Shown: positions 11,944 through 18,177 of the stretch, piece after piece | Layout of the letters: every line of letters starts with the position of its first letter | How positions within the stretch are numbered: the stretch's first letter is position 1 | NCBI GenBank assembly: GCA_047602405.1 | Contig: JASGHJ010000002.1 | Span: 2,816,001-2,880,000 of the forward strand | DNA length: 64,000 nt | Origin: Anaeromyxobacteraceae bacterium | Lineage (GTDB): Bacteria; Myxococcota; Myxococcia; Myxococcales; Anaeromyxobacteraceae | Reading direction: 5' to 3' | Made by a program: the position numbers and the translations under genes | Notes under the pieces: generated by a model | Told to the model about the DNA's origin: nothing | The model's database searches: none | Seen by the model: the letters and a program-made list of their open reading frames with translations, nothing else

Positions 11944-13950
11944 TCAGCCCGGTGCCCCACCCCGGTTCCGGAGGATCCGGATCCCGCCCTCGGCGTCGGC
12001 CACCGCGAGGTCGAGCCAGCCGTCCCCGTCGAGGTCGGCCGCGACGACGCGCGACGCACGGACCTCCGCCAGCGTCACGGGCGCCGCGAAGCGGCCGTCG
12101 CCGAGGTTGCGGTGGAACCGCAGCGCGCCGCGGGGGTCGGCCACCACGAGGTCGACGTCGCCGTCGCGATCGAGGTCGGCCGCGGCCACCGCGGTGCCGC
12201 CGGCGCCGACCTCCGCCGGCGGGCCGAAGGCGTCCTGCCCGGCGAGGAGCACGCGCAGGGCGCCACCGGGGCGGACGATCGCGAGGTCGGCGCGCCGGTC
12301 GCCGTCGAGGTCGGCGCAGGCCGCGGCGTCGCCCTCGTTCAGCCCGAGCCCGCCCGCGACCGCGTACGGGGCGAGGAACGAGGGCCCCTGCCCGGGCACG
12401 ATGGCGACCGAGGCGCCGGGCCCCGCGAGCAGCACGACGAGATCCTGCCAGCCCTCCCCCGTCGCGTCGGCGGTGCAGGCCGTCAGGGCCGAGGACAGAT
12501 CGAGCGGCGCGTCCACCAGGAACTGGAAGGTGTCCTCCACGTTCACGCCGTGGAGCTGGGCGTGGAGCGAGAGGTCCCTGCCGCCGCGAACGAGCGCGGA
12601 GAGCTCCACCGGGCCGTCGAGGCCGAAGTCGCCCGTGCCGAGCGCGAGGATTTGGCCCTCGAGCGTGCGCACCTCGGCGAGCCCGGGGCCGCCCGCGGAG
12701 CCGCGGTAGAGGAGCAGCCCGGTCGGGCCGCCCACCACGAGATCCTCGAAGCCGTCGCGGTTGAGGTCGGCCGAGGCGAGCGTGCGTGCGCCCTCGACGG
12801 ACTCGAGGTGGCCCATCGGCGTGAAGGCGCCGTGGCCGTCGTTGAGGAGCAGCGCGACGCCGGCGTGCGACGTCGAGATCGCCGCGAGGTCGAGGTCGCC
12901 GTCGCCGTCCACGTCGGCCGCGGTGAGCGCGGGGGTGTTCTCGGCGCCCGCGTCCACCGCGACCGGCGCCGCGAAGCCGGCCCACGCCGGCGGGGCGGCG
13001 CGGCGCAGCGGGCGCGCGGCGACGTCGTGGAGCAGGTGGTGCGTGAGGTTCTCGACCTCGCCGGTCTCGGGGTCGAGCGCGTGGAGCTCCCAGTCGTGCG
13101 CGACCGCGGCCGCGTACACGATGCGGCCGTCCGGAGACCAGGCCACGTTCGCGAGGCGGTGGTCGAGCGGGAAGAGCCGGTAGCCGGTGCCGTCCGGGCG
13201 GGCGATGCCGATGCCCATCTCGGCGGCGTCGCCGTCGAAGCGCGCCGCCTGGAACGCGAGCCTTGCACCGTCCGGCGACCAGGCCGGCGCGCGCTCGATG
13301 GCGTCGGGGAAGGCCTCCGCGAGCGGCGCGCGCAGGTGGCCGCCGGCGTGGTTCATGAGCCACAGGCGCGTGCGGCCGGTGCGGTTGGAGGAGAACGCGA
13401 TCGTCGCGCCGCCCGGGGACCAGGCCGGGCCGCGATCCGCGACGGTGGCCGGGAGCGGGTCCGGCGTGAGGTTCTCGCGGCCCGAGCCGTCGCGGTTCAT
13501 GACGAGGATGTCCTCGGAGGCCGAGAGGTCGGAGAACGAGACCGCGAGGTGCTGGCCGTCGGGCGACCAGCTGACCTCGTGCACCGCGAAGTCGCCGGTG
13601 AGGAGCGGCGTCAGCGCGCGCGACCACCGATCCATGAGCCACAGGTTCCCGTCGAGCTCCGCGGAGCGGACGAGCGCGAGCGTGCGGCCGTCCGGCGACG
13701 GCACCGCGGCGGCGACCTCCTGCGGGATGCCGACGAACGGCTCCACGCGGCTGCCGTCGGGCGCCATCGTGTACCAGCTCCACGGGCCTCCGGCCTGGAA
13801 CCGCTGCACGAGGAGCTCGACCTCGGCGTGCGGGACCTCGTCGGAGGGCGGCGGCGGGTCGGGCGGCGGCTGCTGCGGGGTGGGCTGCGAGGCCCCATCG
13901 GAGCAGGAGGCGAGGAGCGTGACGGTGAGGGCGGCAAGTGCGGTGCGCAT
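11944..13950 (-). CDS. Lipoprotein with TolB-like PD40 repeats and FG-GAP repeats
   Basis: Lipobox LLASC, repeated WSPDG and repeated ADLDGDG..DL. Confidence 0.85.
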   Translation of the reverse strand: MRTALAALTVTLLASCSDGASQPTPQQPPPDPPPPSDEVPHAEVELLVQRFQAGGPWSWYTMAPDGSRVEPFVGIPQEVAAAVPSPDGRTLALVRSAELDGNLWLMDRWSRALTPLLTGDFAVHEVSWSPDGQHLAVSFSDLSASEDILVMNRDGSGRENLTPDPLPATVADRGPAWSPGGATIAFSSNRTGRTRLWLMNHAGGHLRAPLAEAFPDAIERAPAWSPDGARLAFQAARFDGDAAEMGIGIARPDGTGYRLFPLDHRLANVAWSPDGRIVYAAAVAHDWELHALDPETGEVENLTHHLLHDVAARPLRRAAPPAWAGFAAPVAVDAGAENTPALTAADVDGDGDLDLAAISTSHAGVALLLNDGHGAFTPMGHLESVEGARTLASADLNRDGFEDLVVGGPTGLLLYRGSAGGPGLAEVRTLEGQILALGTGDFGLDGPVELSALVRGGRDLSLHAQLHGVNVEDTFQFLVDAPLDLSSALTACTADATGEGWQDLVVLLAGPGASVAIVPGQGPSFLAPYAVAGGLGLNEGDAAACADLDGDRRADLAIVRPGGALRVLLAGQDAFGPPAEVGAGGTAVAAADLDRDGDVDLVVADPRGALRFHRNLGDGRFAAPVTLAEVRASRVVAADLDGDGWLDLAVADAEGGIRILRNRGGAPG

Positions 13951-14033
13951 GGCGGTCTCCAGTACGTGTGGAGACCGGTGGGGCTCACGGACGTGGGGAC
14001 GCCCCGGGTGGGGGCGGCGACGAGCAGGGCCGC

Positions 14034-14096
14034 GGCCGGCGCAGACATCTGCGCATGGGCGCGGGCTACCGAGGGCCGGCGCAGACGTCTGCGCAT
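14034..14096. promoter_or_regulatory. Two 23-bp direct repeats, 40 bp apart, each containing the palindrome GCGCAGAC(A/G)TCTGCGC
   Basis: Copies at 14034-14056 and 14074-14096. A regulatory role is inferred. Confidence 0.55.
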
Positions 14097-14384
14097 CCAA
14101 CCCTCTCCCGCCCGTCCATCTCCCCCCGTCGAGCGTAGCGGCCGTAAGGCCGCAAAGACGAGGGACGGCCCGGGCCCCAGAGGTCCGCCGTTCGCATCCA
14201 ACCCTCTCCCGCCCGTCCCTCTCCCCCGTCCGTCCCGAGCGTAGCCCCCGCGCAGCGGGGGCGGAGACGAGGGACGGCCGGGCCCCAGAGGTCCGCCGTT
14301 CGCATCCAACCCTCCCCCGTCCGTCCCTCTCCCCCCGTCCGTCCCGAGCGTAGCCCCCGCGCAGCGGGGGCGGAGACGAGGGAC
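14093..14384 (+). repeat. Three tandem ~101-108-bp units, each containing a family 1 REP-like hairpin
   Basis: Units start with GCATCCAACCCTC at 14093, 14194 and 14302. Confidence 0.9.
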
Positions 14385-14468
14385 AGGGGCCCGGGGGCTC
14401 GGATCAGCCCTGAGCCCCAGCCGGATCGCGCGTTCTCACTGTCAGACCGGGGTGGCAGGATCGCGGGC

Positions 14469-16385
14469 ATGGACGCGTGCACGGCCAGCGAGCTCGTCGC
14501 GGCGGCGCTCCCGGAGTTCACTCCGGGTGCCGAGCCGACGGGCGCGGCCGCGACCGTAGCCGCCGCGAACGACGCCGCCCGCGGGGATCCGCTCCGCGAG
14601 CGCTGGGACCTGCACGCGCCGCGCTGGGAGTACCCGTCTTTCACGATGCTCGAGCTTCGAGAGCTGGTCCTCCGCGGCGAGGGCGGCCCGGAGAAGTTCG
14701 AGCGCGCGCTCGCGCAGGCCGCCTGCATGCGCAGCGCGCTCGAGCTCAGCCTCGGCGCGATCTTCGCCACGTTCACGGAGGGTGACCGCCTCGCCCGGCA
14801 GGGGTTCTCGAACCTCGGCGACCTCACCGAGAACCTCTTCGGCGTCCGCCGGCGCGCGGCGCAGGTGGCGGCGCAGCTCGCGAAGGCGCTCCGGGAGAGG
14901 CCTCTGCTGAGGGCCGCTGCGTACGAGGGGCTCGTGACCCCGTCGGCAGCGCTCGCGGTCCTGCCGGTCGCGGCCGGCGACGACGAGGAGCGCTGGGTGG
15001 AGGAGGCGAAGGTCCAGCCGGTCCGGAAGCTGAAGCAGCTCGTGAAGGAGGCCCTGAAGGAGCGGAAGTCGCTGCCGGGGCCGGATGCGGCCGCAGAGCA
15101 GGCGGAGGCCGACGAGGAGCCGTGGGTCCGGCTGCGCGTGCCGATCTCCGACGAGGACCACGCAGATCTCCGCAGCGCCATGGCCCTCGCCGGCGAGCTC
15201 GTCGAGAGCTCGCACCGGCACGTGCAGCTCGAGGCGCTCGCGCAGGAGTACCTGTCGGAGCACCCGGGAGACGAGTCGGTCGCCGCCGAGGCGGAGCGCG
15301 CCGTGGAGCGGCGGCTCCACCCGCTCGACGTCCAGACGAAGCGCGACGCCGCGGAGGCGAAGCTCGAGGCCGAGACCTCCCACTGGGAGGTCCTCGACCC
15401 GGTCCACGCCGTCGCGGCCCTCGACGTCGATCCGAACGCCCTCGCCACGGACGACGAGCTCATGGCGACGGGCCTCGGCATCGCCTCCGAGCTCAAGGCC
15501 TGGGACGACTTCATGGGCTGGTGCTCGGCCGTCGTGAAGGGCACGCACACCCACCGCGAGGCGGGGTTCGCGGACTTCCGGCACTACGCGACCGAGCGCC
15601 TCGGCGTCCCGGCCCGCACCATCGAGACCCGCGCCGCGCTCGAGAAGCACCTCTGGGAGAAGCCGGAGCTCCGGATCGCGAAGGAGATGGGGCTCACCTA
15701 CTCGAAGCTCCTCCTCCTGAAGGAGGTGCCCCAGATCGACCTCCTCAAGATGGCCCAGCGGGCCGAGAAGCTGACCGTGGTGGAGCTGAGGGAGGTCGTG
15801 CAGGCGAAGGCCGACGCGCAGATGTCTGCGCTGAAGTTCTTCGAGGCCCGGGTGCCGCGGAGCGTCGCGGTGCTGCTCGAGCAGGCGTTCCAGGTGTCGC
15901 TGATGAGGCGGGTGCCGAAGGAGCGCCCCGCGGAGGAGTCAGCCCCCTGCGCGGACGGGTGCGAGCACGACGGAACGCACGGGAAGGACAAGGGAACGCC
16001 GAAGCCGCCCGCCGAGCCGCCCGCCGAGCCGCGCCTCGACGGACCCTTCCTCGGCGAGCTCGCCCGCCACTTCATCCAGGCCTGGTGCAACGAGCGCACG
16101 AAGCCGAAGACCGTCTCCCAGAAGCAGCGCGCGAAGTACCGGCGCTGTCAGTTCCCGGGGTGCAGCCGCCGGAGCTGCCAGGGCCACCACATCGAGTTTC
16201 GCAGCCGCGGCGGCTCGGAGGACGACTGGAACCGGATGCCGCTCTGCGCCTACCACCACCTCGTCGTGGTCCACGAGGGCTTCGCCACCATCACGGGCAT
16301 CTTCCCGGAGGCCGTCGAGTTCCGCGTGAACGGCGTCGTCTGGAAGGACGGCCAGTTCGGGAGGAGGCGCAGCGAGCGGGTGTGA
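14469..16385 (+). CDS. HNH endonuclease with a duplicated DUF222-like N-terminal region
   Basis: C-terminal CQFPGC...GHHIEFRSRGG...N...LCAYHH..VH. Two similar GF...LG helical modules. Confidence 0.85.
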   Translation: MDACTASELVAAALPEFTPGAEPTGAAATVAAANDAARGDPLRERWDLHAPRWEYPSFTMLELRELVLRGEGGPEKFERALAQAACMRSALELSLGAIFATFTEGDRLARQGFSNLGDLTENLFGVRRRAAQVAAQLAKALRERPLLRAAAYEGLVTPSAALAVLPVAAGDDEERWVEEAKVQPVRKLKQLVKEALKERKSLPGPDAAAEQAEADEEPWVRLRVPISDEDHADLRSAMALAGELVESSHRHVQLEALAQEYLSEHPGDESVAAEAERAVERRLHPLDVQTKRDAAEAKLEAETSHWEVLDPVHAVAALDVDPNALATDDELMATGLGIASELKAWDDFMGWCSAVVKGTHTHREAGFADFRHYATERLGVPARTIETRAALEKHLWEKPELRIAKEMGLTYSKLLLLKEVPQIDLLKMAQRAEKLTVVELREVVQAKADAQMSALKFFEARVPRSVAVLLEQAFQVSLMRRVPKERPAEESAPCADGCEHDGTHGKDKGTPKPPAEPPAEPRLDGPFLGELARHFIQAWCNERTKPKTVSQKQRAKYRRCQFPGCSRRSCQGHHIEFRSRGGSEDDWNRMPLCAYHHLVVVHEGFATITGIFPEAVEFRVNGVVWKDGQFGRRRSERV

Positions 16386-16454
16386 GGCGACGTGCGGCGC
16401 GGCGCCTCCGCCGCGCCGTCCCGCCCCGCCGCCGTCCCGCCGCCGTCCCGCGGC

Positions 16455-18116
16455 CTACCGCGCGATCGGCTTGTACCGGATGCGCTTCGGCTTCGCGCCC
16501 TCCTCGCCGAGGCGGCGCTTCTTGTCGGCCTCGTACTCCTGGTAGTTGCCGGTGAAGAAGCTCCACTTCGAGTCGCCCTCGCACGCGAGGATGTGCGTGG
16601 CGATGCGATCGAGGAACCAGCGGTCGTGGCTGATGACCATGACCGAGCCGGCGTACTCGAGGAGCGCGTCCTCGAGGGCGCGGAGGGTCTCGACGTCGAG
16701 GTCGTTCGAGGGCTCGTCGAGGAGCAGGAGGTTCCCGCCCGTCATGAGCGTCTTCGCGAGGTGCAGGCGGCCGCGCTCGCCACCCGAGAGCGTGCCGACG
16801 ACCTTCGACTGGTCGGCGCCCTTGAAGTTGAAGCGCGCGATGTAGTTGCGGCTCGGCATGGTGAACTTGCCGACCGTGATCTGGTCGGAGCCGCCGGAGA
16901 GCTCCTCGAAGATGGTCTTCGTGGAGGTGAGGTTCTCGCGGCTCTGGTCGACGAAGGCGAGCTTCACCGACTGGCCGATCTTCACCTCGCCGGAGTCGGG
17001 CTGCTCCTTGCCGGTGATCATCTTGAAGAGCGTCGACTTGCCGGCGCCGTTCGGGCCGATGATGCCGACGATGGCGCCGGGCGGGACGATGAAGCTGAGG
17101 TCGTCGATGAGGAGCCGGTCGCCGAAGCCCTTTGAGACGTTCTTGAACTCCACCACCTGGTCGCCGAGCCGCTCGGCGACCGGGATGAAGATCTCCTGGG
17201 TCTCGTTGCGCCGCTGGTACTCGACCGAGGAGAGCTCCTCGAAGCGGGCGAGGCGGGCCTTCGACTTCGCCTGGCGCGCCTTCGGGTTCTGGCGAACCCA
17301 CTCGAGCTCCTGCTTCATCGCCTTGATGCGGGCCGACTCCTGCTTCTGCTCGAGCTCGAGCCGCTGCTCCTTCTGGTCCAACCACGAGGAGTAGTTGCCC
17401 TTCCAGGGGATGCCCCTGCCGCGGTCGAGCTCGAGGATCCACTCGGCGGCGTTGTCGAGGAAGTAGCGGTCGTGCGTGACGGCGACGACGGTGCCCGGGA
17501 AGCGGGTGAGGAACTGCTCGAGCCACTCGACCGACTCGGCATCGAGGTGGTTCGTGGGCTCGTCGAGGAGCAGCATGTCCGGCTTCGAGAGGAGCAGCTT
17601 CGCGAGCGCGACCCGGCGCTTCTCGCCGCCGGAGAGCACGCCGATCTTCTGGTCCCAGGGCGGGAGGCGGAGCGCGTCGGCGGCGATCTCGAGGGCGGTG
17701 CCGGTGTCCGCGCCGGCGGTCGCGATGACGTGCTCGAGCCGGGCCTGCTCCTCGGCGAGCTTCTCCATGTCGGCGTCGGGGTCGGAGTAGGCCGCGTAGA
17801 CCTCCTCGAGCCGCTTCTGGGCGGCGGCGACGTCACCCTGCGCCGACTCGACCTCCTCGCGGACCGTCCGCTCGGCGTCGAGGACCGGCTCCTGCGGGAG
17901 GTAGCCGATCTTCACGTTCATCCGGGTGATCTCGCCGGAGTACGCGTCGTCCACGCCCGCCATGAGCCGGAGCACCGTGGACTTGCCCGCGCCGTTCAGG
18001 CCGAGGAGGCCGATCTTGGCGCCCTGGAAGAACGACAGGGAGATGTCCTTGATGATCTCGCGCTTGGGCGGGACGATCTTGGACACCCGGATCATCGACA
18101 TCACGTACTGGGGCAT
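16455..18116 (-). CDS. ettA: Energy-dependent translational throttle EttA (ABC-F)
   Basis: Two ABC domains (GLNGAGKST, LSGGE, LDEP) and linker ELEWVRQNPKARQAKSKARL. Confidence 0.95.
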   Translation of the reverse strand: MPQYVMSMIRVSKIVPPKREIIKDISLSFFQGAKIGLLGLNGAGKSTVLRLMAGVDDAYSGEITRMNVKIGYLPQEPVLDAERTVREEVESAQGDVAAAQKRLEEVYAAYSDPDADMEKLAEEQARLEHVIATAGADTGTALEIAADALRLPPWDQKIGVLSGGEKRRVALAKLLLSKPDMLLLDEPTNHLDAESVEWLEQFLTRFPGTVVAVTHDRYFLDNAAEWILELDRGRGIPWKGNYSSWLDQKEQRLELEQKQESARIKAMKQELEWVRQNPKARQAKSKARLARFEELSSVEYQRRNETQEIFIPVAERLGDQVVEFKNVSKGFGDRLLIDDLSFIVPPGAIVGIIGPNGAGKSTLFKMITGKEQPDSGEVKIGQSVKLAFVDQSRENLTSTKTIFEELSGGSDQITVGKFTMPSRNYIARFNFKGADQSKVVGTLSGGERGRLHLAKTLMTGGNLLLLDEPSNDLDVETLRALEDALLEYAGSVMVISHDRWFLDRIATHILACEGDSKWSFFTGNYQEYEADKKRRLGEEGAKPKRIRYKPIAR

Positions 18117-18177
18117 CGGCGGCGGTTCCTCTCGGGAGGGTGCGGCGACGCAGCGAGCGGGCTGCGGGGGGCGGAAT

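Follow-up and report, generated by a model that had tools for sequence, protein, structure and literature searches.

A 16-bp palindromic site in and upstream of an HNH-family gene of an Anaeromyxobacteraceae genome is held at the DNA level and may be the docking site of the encoded protein

In this work we describe a 16-bp palindromic site associated with a family of HNH nuclease-like genes, starting from a stretch of 64,000 nucleotides of an Anaeromyxobacteraceae genome (contig JASGHJ010000002.1, positions 2,816,001 to 2,880,000; this whole stretch is called the window). One site lies within the HNH-family gene of the window and two lie upstream of it (Table 1). Judged from codon usage, the intragenic site at codons 450-454 is held at the DNA level across the family, and further copies are dispersed over the genome, where they are associated with strain-variable DNA. 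It is quite probable that the site is the docking site of the HNH protein itself, and we lean slightly towards a version in which the docked protein also cuts beside the site, thereby driving conversion, scars and spread. The window's own genome, designated G000, comprises 6.16 Mb at 74% GC, and the named homologues of the gene are Anaeromyxobacter HNH proteins.

The first-pass annotation of the window described a palindrome occurring twice upstream of the gene and once inside it. The three sequences are indeed found there, the upstream pair being 40 bp apart from start to start, and the intragenic GCGCAGATGTCTGCGC, encoding A450-Q-M-S-A454, is the exact reverse complement of upstream site 1, GCGCAGACATCTGCGC; with 3 exact matches in total the window holds no further copy. 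The word palindrome applies strictly to the copy at 14079, which is perfect, and not to the other two, which have one central mismatch each. The TCT codon is rare as claimed: it accounts for 2 of the gene's 27 Ser codons, GC at third codon positions being 96%, and for 0.8% of Ser codons genome-wide. This picture was incomplete in that it did not contain about 20 stray copies in the genome, linked to strain-variable DNA.

Genome-wide, 27 exact matches to the 16-mer were found in G000. The perfect 16-mer was observed 21 times against 0.014-0.015 expected, and the 12-bp core GCAGACGTCTGC 27 times against 0.35-0.49, an excess over the Markov expectation of ~60- to 80-fold; by over-representation the core ranks first among 788 observed palindromic 12-mers, with a ratio of 32 and a runner-up at 7.6. 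The 36 sites that match GCAGAYRTCTGC are scattered over both contigs (C1 and C2) and, placed with gene calls from a codon model built in this analysis, fall into HNH genes (5), HNH leaders (11), stray intergenic positions (12) and other predicted genes (8). The 12-mer is present in 36 copies each in G000 and in a second genome, G010, and in at most one copy in each of 23 other genomes of the genus. A wider pattern exceeds three copies in only 3 of 92 family genomes, G000 (38), G010 (40) and G013 (26), and in the last of these the copies cluster at the HNH genes as in-frame tandem repeats. For Arg-type variants of the site the genome-wide counts were near control in most genomes, this pattern being too degenerate. 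We also noticed that low-complexity linkers in host proteins (C1:835536, C1:794706, C2:3441815) contain the palindrome in frame, read as AQTSA, and this is seen in G010 as well.

G000 has 16 paralogs of the gene, three of which encode proteins 97-98% identical to that of the window. At the same codons, all 11 close paralogs have the site in a GCANAYRTNTGC version (QMSA, HMSA, QMCA), and 7 of the 11 have copies within 1 kb upstream, amounting to 11 exact 12-mers where ~0.06 would be expected; downstream copies were found in 0/11, and the count for the five distant paralogs was 0/5. The upstream copies lie 180-820 bp from the gene start, and 9/9 asymmetric ones stand in the opposite orientation to the intragenic site, the 6 loci concerned including two with shared descent. 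The motif is enriched both inside and upstream of the paralogs, as the first-pass annotation had anticipated. The HNH family is present in 24/24 other genus genomes searched, the close clade among them only in G010; among 41 genomes this clade is carried by G000 and G010 alone. Homology between paralogs ends at the stop codon, the inverted partner of the site sitting within the open reading frame (ORF), and the leader common to the window gene and the paralog at C2:3045.8k begins at the first palindrome. A metagenome scan gave 3 loci, 2 of them with the intragenic site, in which the leader is short or absent.

Codon usage at the site was followed in 80 fetched family loci, mostly 30-40% identical. 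Position 451 is Q or H in 77/80 loci, and the codon preceding it ends in G in 76 of these 77. At codon 453, Arg is written CGT in 32/40 cases (genome use 1.8%), Cys as TGT in 15/30 (2.2%) and Ser as TCT in 5/6 (0.8%), and Ala454 appears as GCC in only 3/70. When the columns were ranked after removal of five near-duplicate loci (75 relatives), codon 453 was the most biased of 529, its third position being A/T in 68% against 35% for the next column. As this is the most codon-biased column, the constraint acts on DNA, and the synonymous constraint that the first-pass annotation had proposed to look for at the AQMSA codons is present. On a quick tree, extra copies of each lineage's own variant are spread over six or more separate clades, either inverted ~670 bp upstream within the gene, direct at -380, +95 or +126, in tandem, or upstream. 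In the clade with the 670-bp pair, two branches show a switch of the site from QMR to QLR, each accompanied by a switch of the inverted partner from THL to TQL.

The AlphaFold2 model of the window protein (mean predicted local distance difference test score, pLDDT, 79) contains two modules, amino acids (aa) 74-195 and 328-447, which are internal duplicates (probability 97.9%). Module 1 matches the ParB DNA-binding domain on parS (6s6h; Z 8.3, root-mean-square deviation 3.4, 101 aligned) and then Spo0J (1vz0; Z 7.7), while module 2 matches Spo0J, ParB and KorB at Z 4.2-5.7 (1vz0, Z 5.7) and the Noc domain on its site (6y93) with probability 0.97 and E 0.8, the Noc/ParB probabilities ranging from 0.84 to 0.97. 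The same ParB/Spo0J/KorB/Noc family leads every fold search for both modules, so the earlier guess of a parS-like site gains support as far as the predicted fold is concerned. The strand-helix-helix segment matches ribbon-helix-helix proteins (1u9p) weakly, at Z 3.9-4.5 only. The C-terminus matches the HNH domains of IscB, TagI and McrA (Z 6.3-7.3), and the catalytic-type residues C560, C565, H573, H574, N588, C593, H596, H597 and H602 are invariant in 23/23 aligned sequences. PF01844 is matched by 18 of the 23 members (best E 4.8e-7), the window protein staying below the cut-off at 17 bits. DUF222 (PF02720) has no match in the window protein or its 23 aligned relatives; two distant paralogs give a weak 18 bits, under the cut-off of 24.4, and the neighbour cluster in the Atlas is 15% DUF222. 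The label DUF222-like, used in the first-pass annotation, is thus below the Pfam cut-off. Neither a ParBc or ParB CTPase-domain Pfam match, nor a GIY-YIG domain, nor a DDE or HUH transposase domain was found in the window protein or the 23 members.

In 16/16 paralogs a YGTCAG motif stands 29-32 nucleotides (nt) 5' of the start, and the family logo, from 64 of 78 loci, reads TGTCAG-N10-xAxxxT. We read this promoter motif as PafBC-type because it fits the consensus tGTCgg(N10)tA(N3)T, as given in a passage of PMC8635444. The same motif occurs, among 24 matches, 5' of SSB, UvrD-like, RecN-like and RadA-like genes (C1:5296, C1:20535, C2:157595, C2:1840609 and C2:3586416, SSB being in two copies), which suggests a PafBC-like DNA-damage regulon in a myxobacterium; a paper on M. 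xanthus (PMC12288472) mentions PafBC for mycobacteria only, in the portion available. From its promoter sequence, the HNH gene would be switched on by DNA damage, and with the motif so close to the ATG the transcript of the window gene is likely leaderless. Two tandem WYL gene pairs were noticed in G000, at C1:233-234k and C1:2007-2008k, and add to the suggestion of such a regulon.

G010 is 93% identical to G000 over 681 of 800 kb of control sequence, and part of it was compared. At their syntenic G010 slots 5/11 close G000 cassettes were not found, and 3 of these 5 genome-specific cassettes start at, or in two cases 28-29 bp outside, an upstream site and end 4-69 bp past the stop codon. The suggestion that the motif defines a mobile unit thus holds for the left end of these three and not for the right end, which is the stop codon. 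The alternative alleles hold other DNA, and no clean empty site that would reveal a target-site duplication was seen; in G010 the slot of the window cassette is filled by a toxin-antitoxin-like pair (Phd/PIN) plus an ORF of unknown kind, and it has no palindrome. Stray intergenic sites of G010 lie within 50 bp of a synteny break in 9/17 cases, against 10.9% of control positions (p 2e-5), and their regions are variable in 16/17 cases, against 117/345 in the control (p 7e-7). In G000 the corresponding figure is 5/12 within 50 bp of a break; the other 7 lie in DNA unaligned to the compared G010 stretches, and one of them adjoins a G010 contig end. Among clear edge cases, a 283-bp G000 insertion ends 8 bp past the core, another site stands where G010 has 565 different bases, and a 1.3-kb G010 insertion ends at a site common to both genomes. 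Sites at the exact edges of insertions or deletions are found far from any paralog (C2:2994674, C2:1747939, C1:1665783). Taken from genome comparison, the link between site and break is strong as an association, which is no demonstration of cause. Within the gene itself, the densest patch of differences among four near-identical copies ends just before the intragenic site (Table 1) and is likely a gene-conversion tract, each such patch being counted as a single event.

Some individual loci deserve description in their own right. In G010 (L295:2543-3475) a Y1/IS200-like transposase gene of RAYT type and a lipoprotein-like gene replace a G000 HNH cassette directly after a shared palindrome. Another HNH copy of G010 (L121 end and L123:1-3320) seems, by eye, to be split by an element that carries tyrosine-integrase-like genes. 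Next to a tRNA-like gene lies a 1.2-kb insert specific to G000 (C2:1833100-1834400), which carries a partial duplicate of the end of that gene and has the palindrome at its outer edge. At C1:209997-212015 G000 has an HNH cassette and G010 has 4.2 kb of cytochrome-like genes (L346:11306-15557); the gain of the cassette and the loss of the host genes may there be one event.

Obtained results can be joined in the following model. The two predicted ParB/Noc-type helix-turn-helix modules would read the two half-sites, and a PafBC-type activator would turn the HNH gene on. The bound HNH domain would then nick or cut next to the site, and host repair would close the break. Such repair could yield conversion patches beside the intragenic site, tandem duplications anchored on the site and insertion/deletion scars that the site borders on one side; now and then it could also place the whole cassette, from the upstream site through the stop codon, in a new slot as an extra copy. 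Protein bound at the intragenic site, 5' of the nuclease-coding part, might at the same time damp transcription of its own gene. In the fullest form of this model, which we put forward tentatively and at somewhat less than an even chance, the genes would be selfish elements related to REP13E12, in which a single protein combines tandem ParB-type readers with an HNH nuclease, recognises a 16-bp site in its own gene, is activated by the DNA-damage activator of the host, cuts beside the site and spreads without a transposase, the site being left as a landmark at junctions of gene gain and loss.

Several results weigh against docking accompanied by cutting. Genome-wide stray copies are limited to one lineage (G000 and G010 among the 92 family genomes), and an unrelated QMSA-type gene, L272, has none in its fragmentary genome. 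Upstream copies are lacking within 1 kb in 4/11 close paralogs and in 2/5 genome-specific cassettes, and they are rare outside this lineage (5 upstream vs 0 downstream in ~48 kb each, 53 loci). In the 670-bp clade, members L242 and L244 have non-matching pairs. As to breaks, BLAST blocks tend to end at the last conserved word, which inflates the number of sites counted as lying at an edge, and the matched control was too small (n=4); the tallies of G000 and G010, which have several sites in common, cannot be treated as independent. In four other species, none of which has the motif, different genes occupy the slot after ettA. A second patch of differences, in the H clade, starts just past the site and is not enriched there (9/108, p 0.56). 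Finally, the fold Z-scores are moderate (4.9-8.3), in a range flagged by the tool as a possible shared helical arrangement, and Foldseek on the whole model returned nothing at E<=0.001.

The strongest competitor, although we think it rather unlikely, keeps the docking and removes the cutting: the protein would limit its own toxic expression through an intragenic roadblock and the upstream copies, its spread would be unrelated to cutting and stray sites would be passengers. It is consistent with an intragenic site that is nearly universal while upstream copies are patchy, with the repeated origin of extra intragenic copies, with the location of the site 5' of the nuclease-coding part and with the distance of the upstream copies from the start, which suits looping over promoter overlap. 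Yet looping, also envisaged by the first-pass annotation, finds no support in a fixed helical phase between paired sites (p 0.04-0.47, by set and test, not significant), and the indel-edge sites far from paralogs are left unexplained. Stray sites as relics of cassette leaders were tried and rejected, their flanks being mostly unrelated (best 5-10/12 match against 9 leader sites); since most stray sites have no leader flanks, they are not simple relics. A different proposal, which we find improbable, makes the palindrome a passive repeat spread by another mover, e.g. a REP-type tyrosine transposase, or perfected by palindrome repair, and gathering in the same tolerant slots as HNH genes. An abundant hairpin repeat does occur in the leader too, the Y1 transposase gene of G010 stands directly after a shared site and the slots are variable in any case. 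What speaks against it is that the intragenic motif is constrained in 30-40% identical relatives whose genomes have no stray copies, that the palindrome has no loop and no GTAG/CGTC-type unpaired tag of the kind described in part of PMC3733652, and that no Y1 transposase lies at the window locus. Generic repair of palindromes, moreover, would not yield one fixed sequence.

The palindrome presumably resembles LacI/PurR operators, and it might be the site of a host transcription factor, e.g. LacI-type, that regulates HNH genes by happenstance, an explanation to which we give even less weight than to the passive repeat. G009 has 10 copies of a look-alike palindrome, GCAAACGTTTGC (control 0), most of them 5' of carbohydrate-enzyme-like genes. 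Against such a factor, a stop codon is 30 bp away or less for 7 of the 23 intergenic sites of G000 and a start within 100 bp for only 6, no common function was seen among the neighbours of the sites, and the variants of the site follow the HNH lineage. We considered GCAAACGTTTGC as a second HNH-linked case and rejected it, for it is not at HNH genes; judged by eye, most of its copies (L308-L315) precede glycoside-hydrolase-like genes and one adjoins a LacI-like regulator, and it is probably the operator of a carbohydrate regulon. Chance, or constraint on the protein motif Q-M-x-A, is the least credible reading of all. Residues Q451 and A454 are conserved in the alignment and a few coding-region matches look incidental (RecJ-like and PheS-like genes), but the third base stays T across Arg, Cys and Ser, and the over-representation of the core and the ranking of codon columns refute it.

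Table 1. Features of the HNH locus in the window
Feature	Position	Strand	Remark
Genome-specific cassette slot	14014..16453		between FG-GAP gene and ettA-like gene
Upstream site 1, GCGCAGACATCTGCGC	14039..14054		inverted relative to intragenic site
Leader, three imperfect 101-108 bp repeats	14069..14390	+	
Upstream site 2, GCGCAGACGTCTGCGC	14079..14094		perfect palindrome
Dispersed hairpin repeat	14226-14280 and 14335-14385		two copies inside leader
PafBC-type promoter motif, TGTCAG-N10-CAGGAT	14440..14461	+	7 nt 5' of ATG
HNH-family gene	14469..16385	+	638 aa; one of 16 paralogs
Module 1, aa 74-195	14688..15053	+	predicted ParB-type helix-turn-helix DNA-binding fold
Strand-helix-helix segment 1, aa 219-264	15123..15260	+	possible half of a single-chain ribbon-helix-helix, weak
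Module 2, aa 328-447	15450..15809	+	internal duplicate of module 1; predicted ParB/Noc-type fold
Patch of 14 differences among four near-identical copies	15755..15810	+	ends 6 bp 5' of intragenic site; likely conversion tract
Intragenic site, GCGCAGATGTCTGCGC	15816..15831	+	codons 450-454, AQMSA; between module 2 and nuclease-coding part
HNH nuclease domain, aa 546-628	16104..16352	+	

The neighbours of the gene in the window look ordinary: a PD40/FG-GAP repeat protein (11944-13949) and, on the minus strand, an EttA-like ABC-F protein (16455-18119), beyond which NADH dehydrogenase-like genes were recognised by eye. In the leader no sigma-70 consensus promoter was found, and Rfam gave sub-threshold microRNA matches only, none at gathering score; a guide or structured RNA in the leader was rejected on this account. 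The hairpin repeat of the leader, ~50 bp long, has well over 100 BLAST matches across the genome, forms a REP-like family and in places directly adjoins the palindrome (L138, L149).

Among known systems the locus is closest to the REP13E12/13E12 genes of mycobacteria (DUF222 plus HNH, PF02720 plus PF01844), with which it shares a dispersed multi-copy HNH gene, a DNA-damage-type promoter motif and variable presence. According to the available text of PMC3381160, DNA damage induces the 13E12 members, which have RecA_NDp and are termed insertion elements, with a phage attachment site within the element; that text does not mention an intragenic and upstream palindrome. We file the locus as a variant of the REP13E12/DUF222-HNH kind, because it would work alike and yet has no DUF222 match above cut-off, its host is a myxobacterium and its protein has two predicted ParB-type modules. 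The likeness to ParB/Noc and parS/NBS lies in the predicted helix-turn-helix fold and in a palindromic site of similar size in several copies; the ParB DNA-binding domain binds palindromic parS two-fold symmetrically, as stated in a section of PMC7383237. In the present case, unlike ParB/Noc, the two modules are in one chain fused to a nuclease, with no CTPase-domain match and no parA neighbour, and unlike ParABS/Noc the sites are dispersed over both contigs and in the gene itself, not clustered at the origin. SsnA-NTS offers another parallel, a nuclease gene tied to a repeated sequence found genome-wide and linked to genome dynamics; Ssn, as far as described in part of PMC11893778, is a single-strand nuclease of the GIY-YIG type and has hundreds of sites. 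Here, instead, there are an HNH protein, predicted double-strand readers and 36 sites, of which one is in the ORF. From a classical insertion sequence the cassette differs in having no DDE or HUH domain and no inverted repeats at both ends. Free-standing HNH homing endonucleases are selfish nuclease genes whose presence or absence varies at syntenic slots between close genomes. In contrast to these, insertion does not destroy the site, which persists at the cassette edge and in the gene, many loci are occupied per genome and the alternative alleles carry unrelated cargo; a target present in the empty allele and destroyed by insertion was not seen, the site being retained in both G000 and G010 at C2:2927k and there being none in the G010 slot of the window cassette. 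A literature search, which covered few subscription papers and no supplements, found no description of the intragenic or upstream palindrome or of the ParB-type modules.

To what is known of such elements this locus adds codon-level control, lineage-matched changes of the site and an association with breakpoints. In the part of PMC3381160 available, 13E12 genes are called insertion elements and no mechanism of spread is given, whereas the present locus offers a specific target sequence together with a domain predicted to read it and 36 mapped sites, and therefore binding, cutting and hotspot formation become directly testable in a soil bacterium. Should the protein indeed cut near its 16-bp site, we would have a natural long-recognition nuclease with a lineage-dependent site, and a candidate for driving gene turnover when DNA is damaged.

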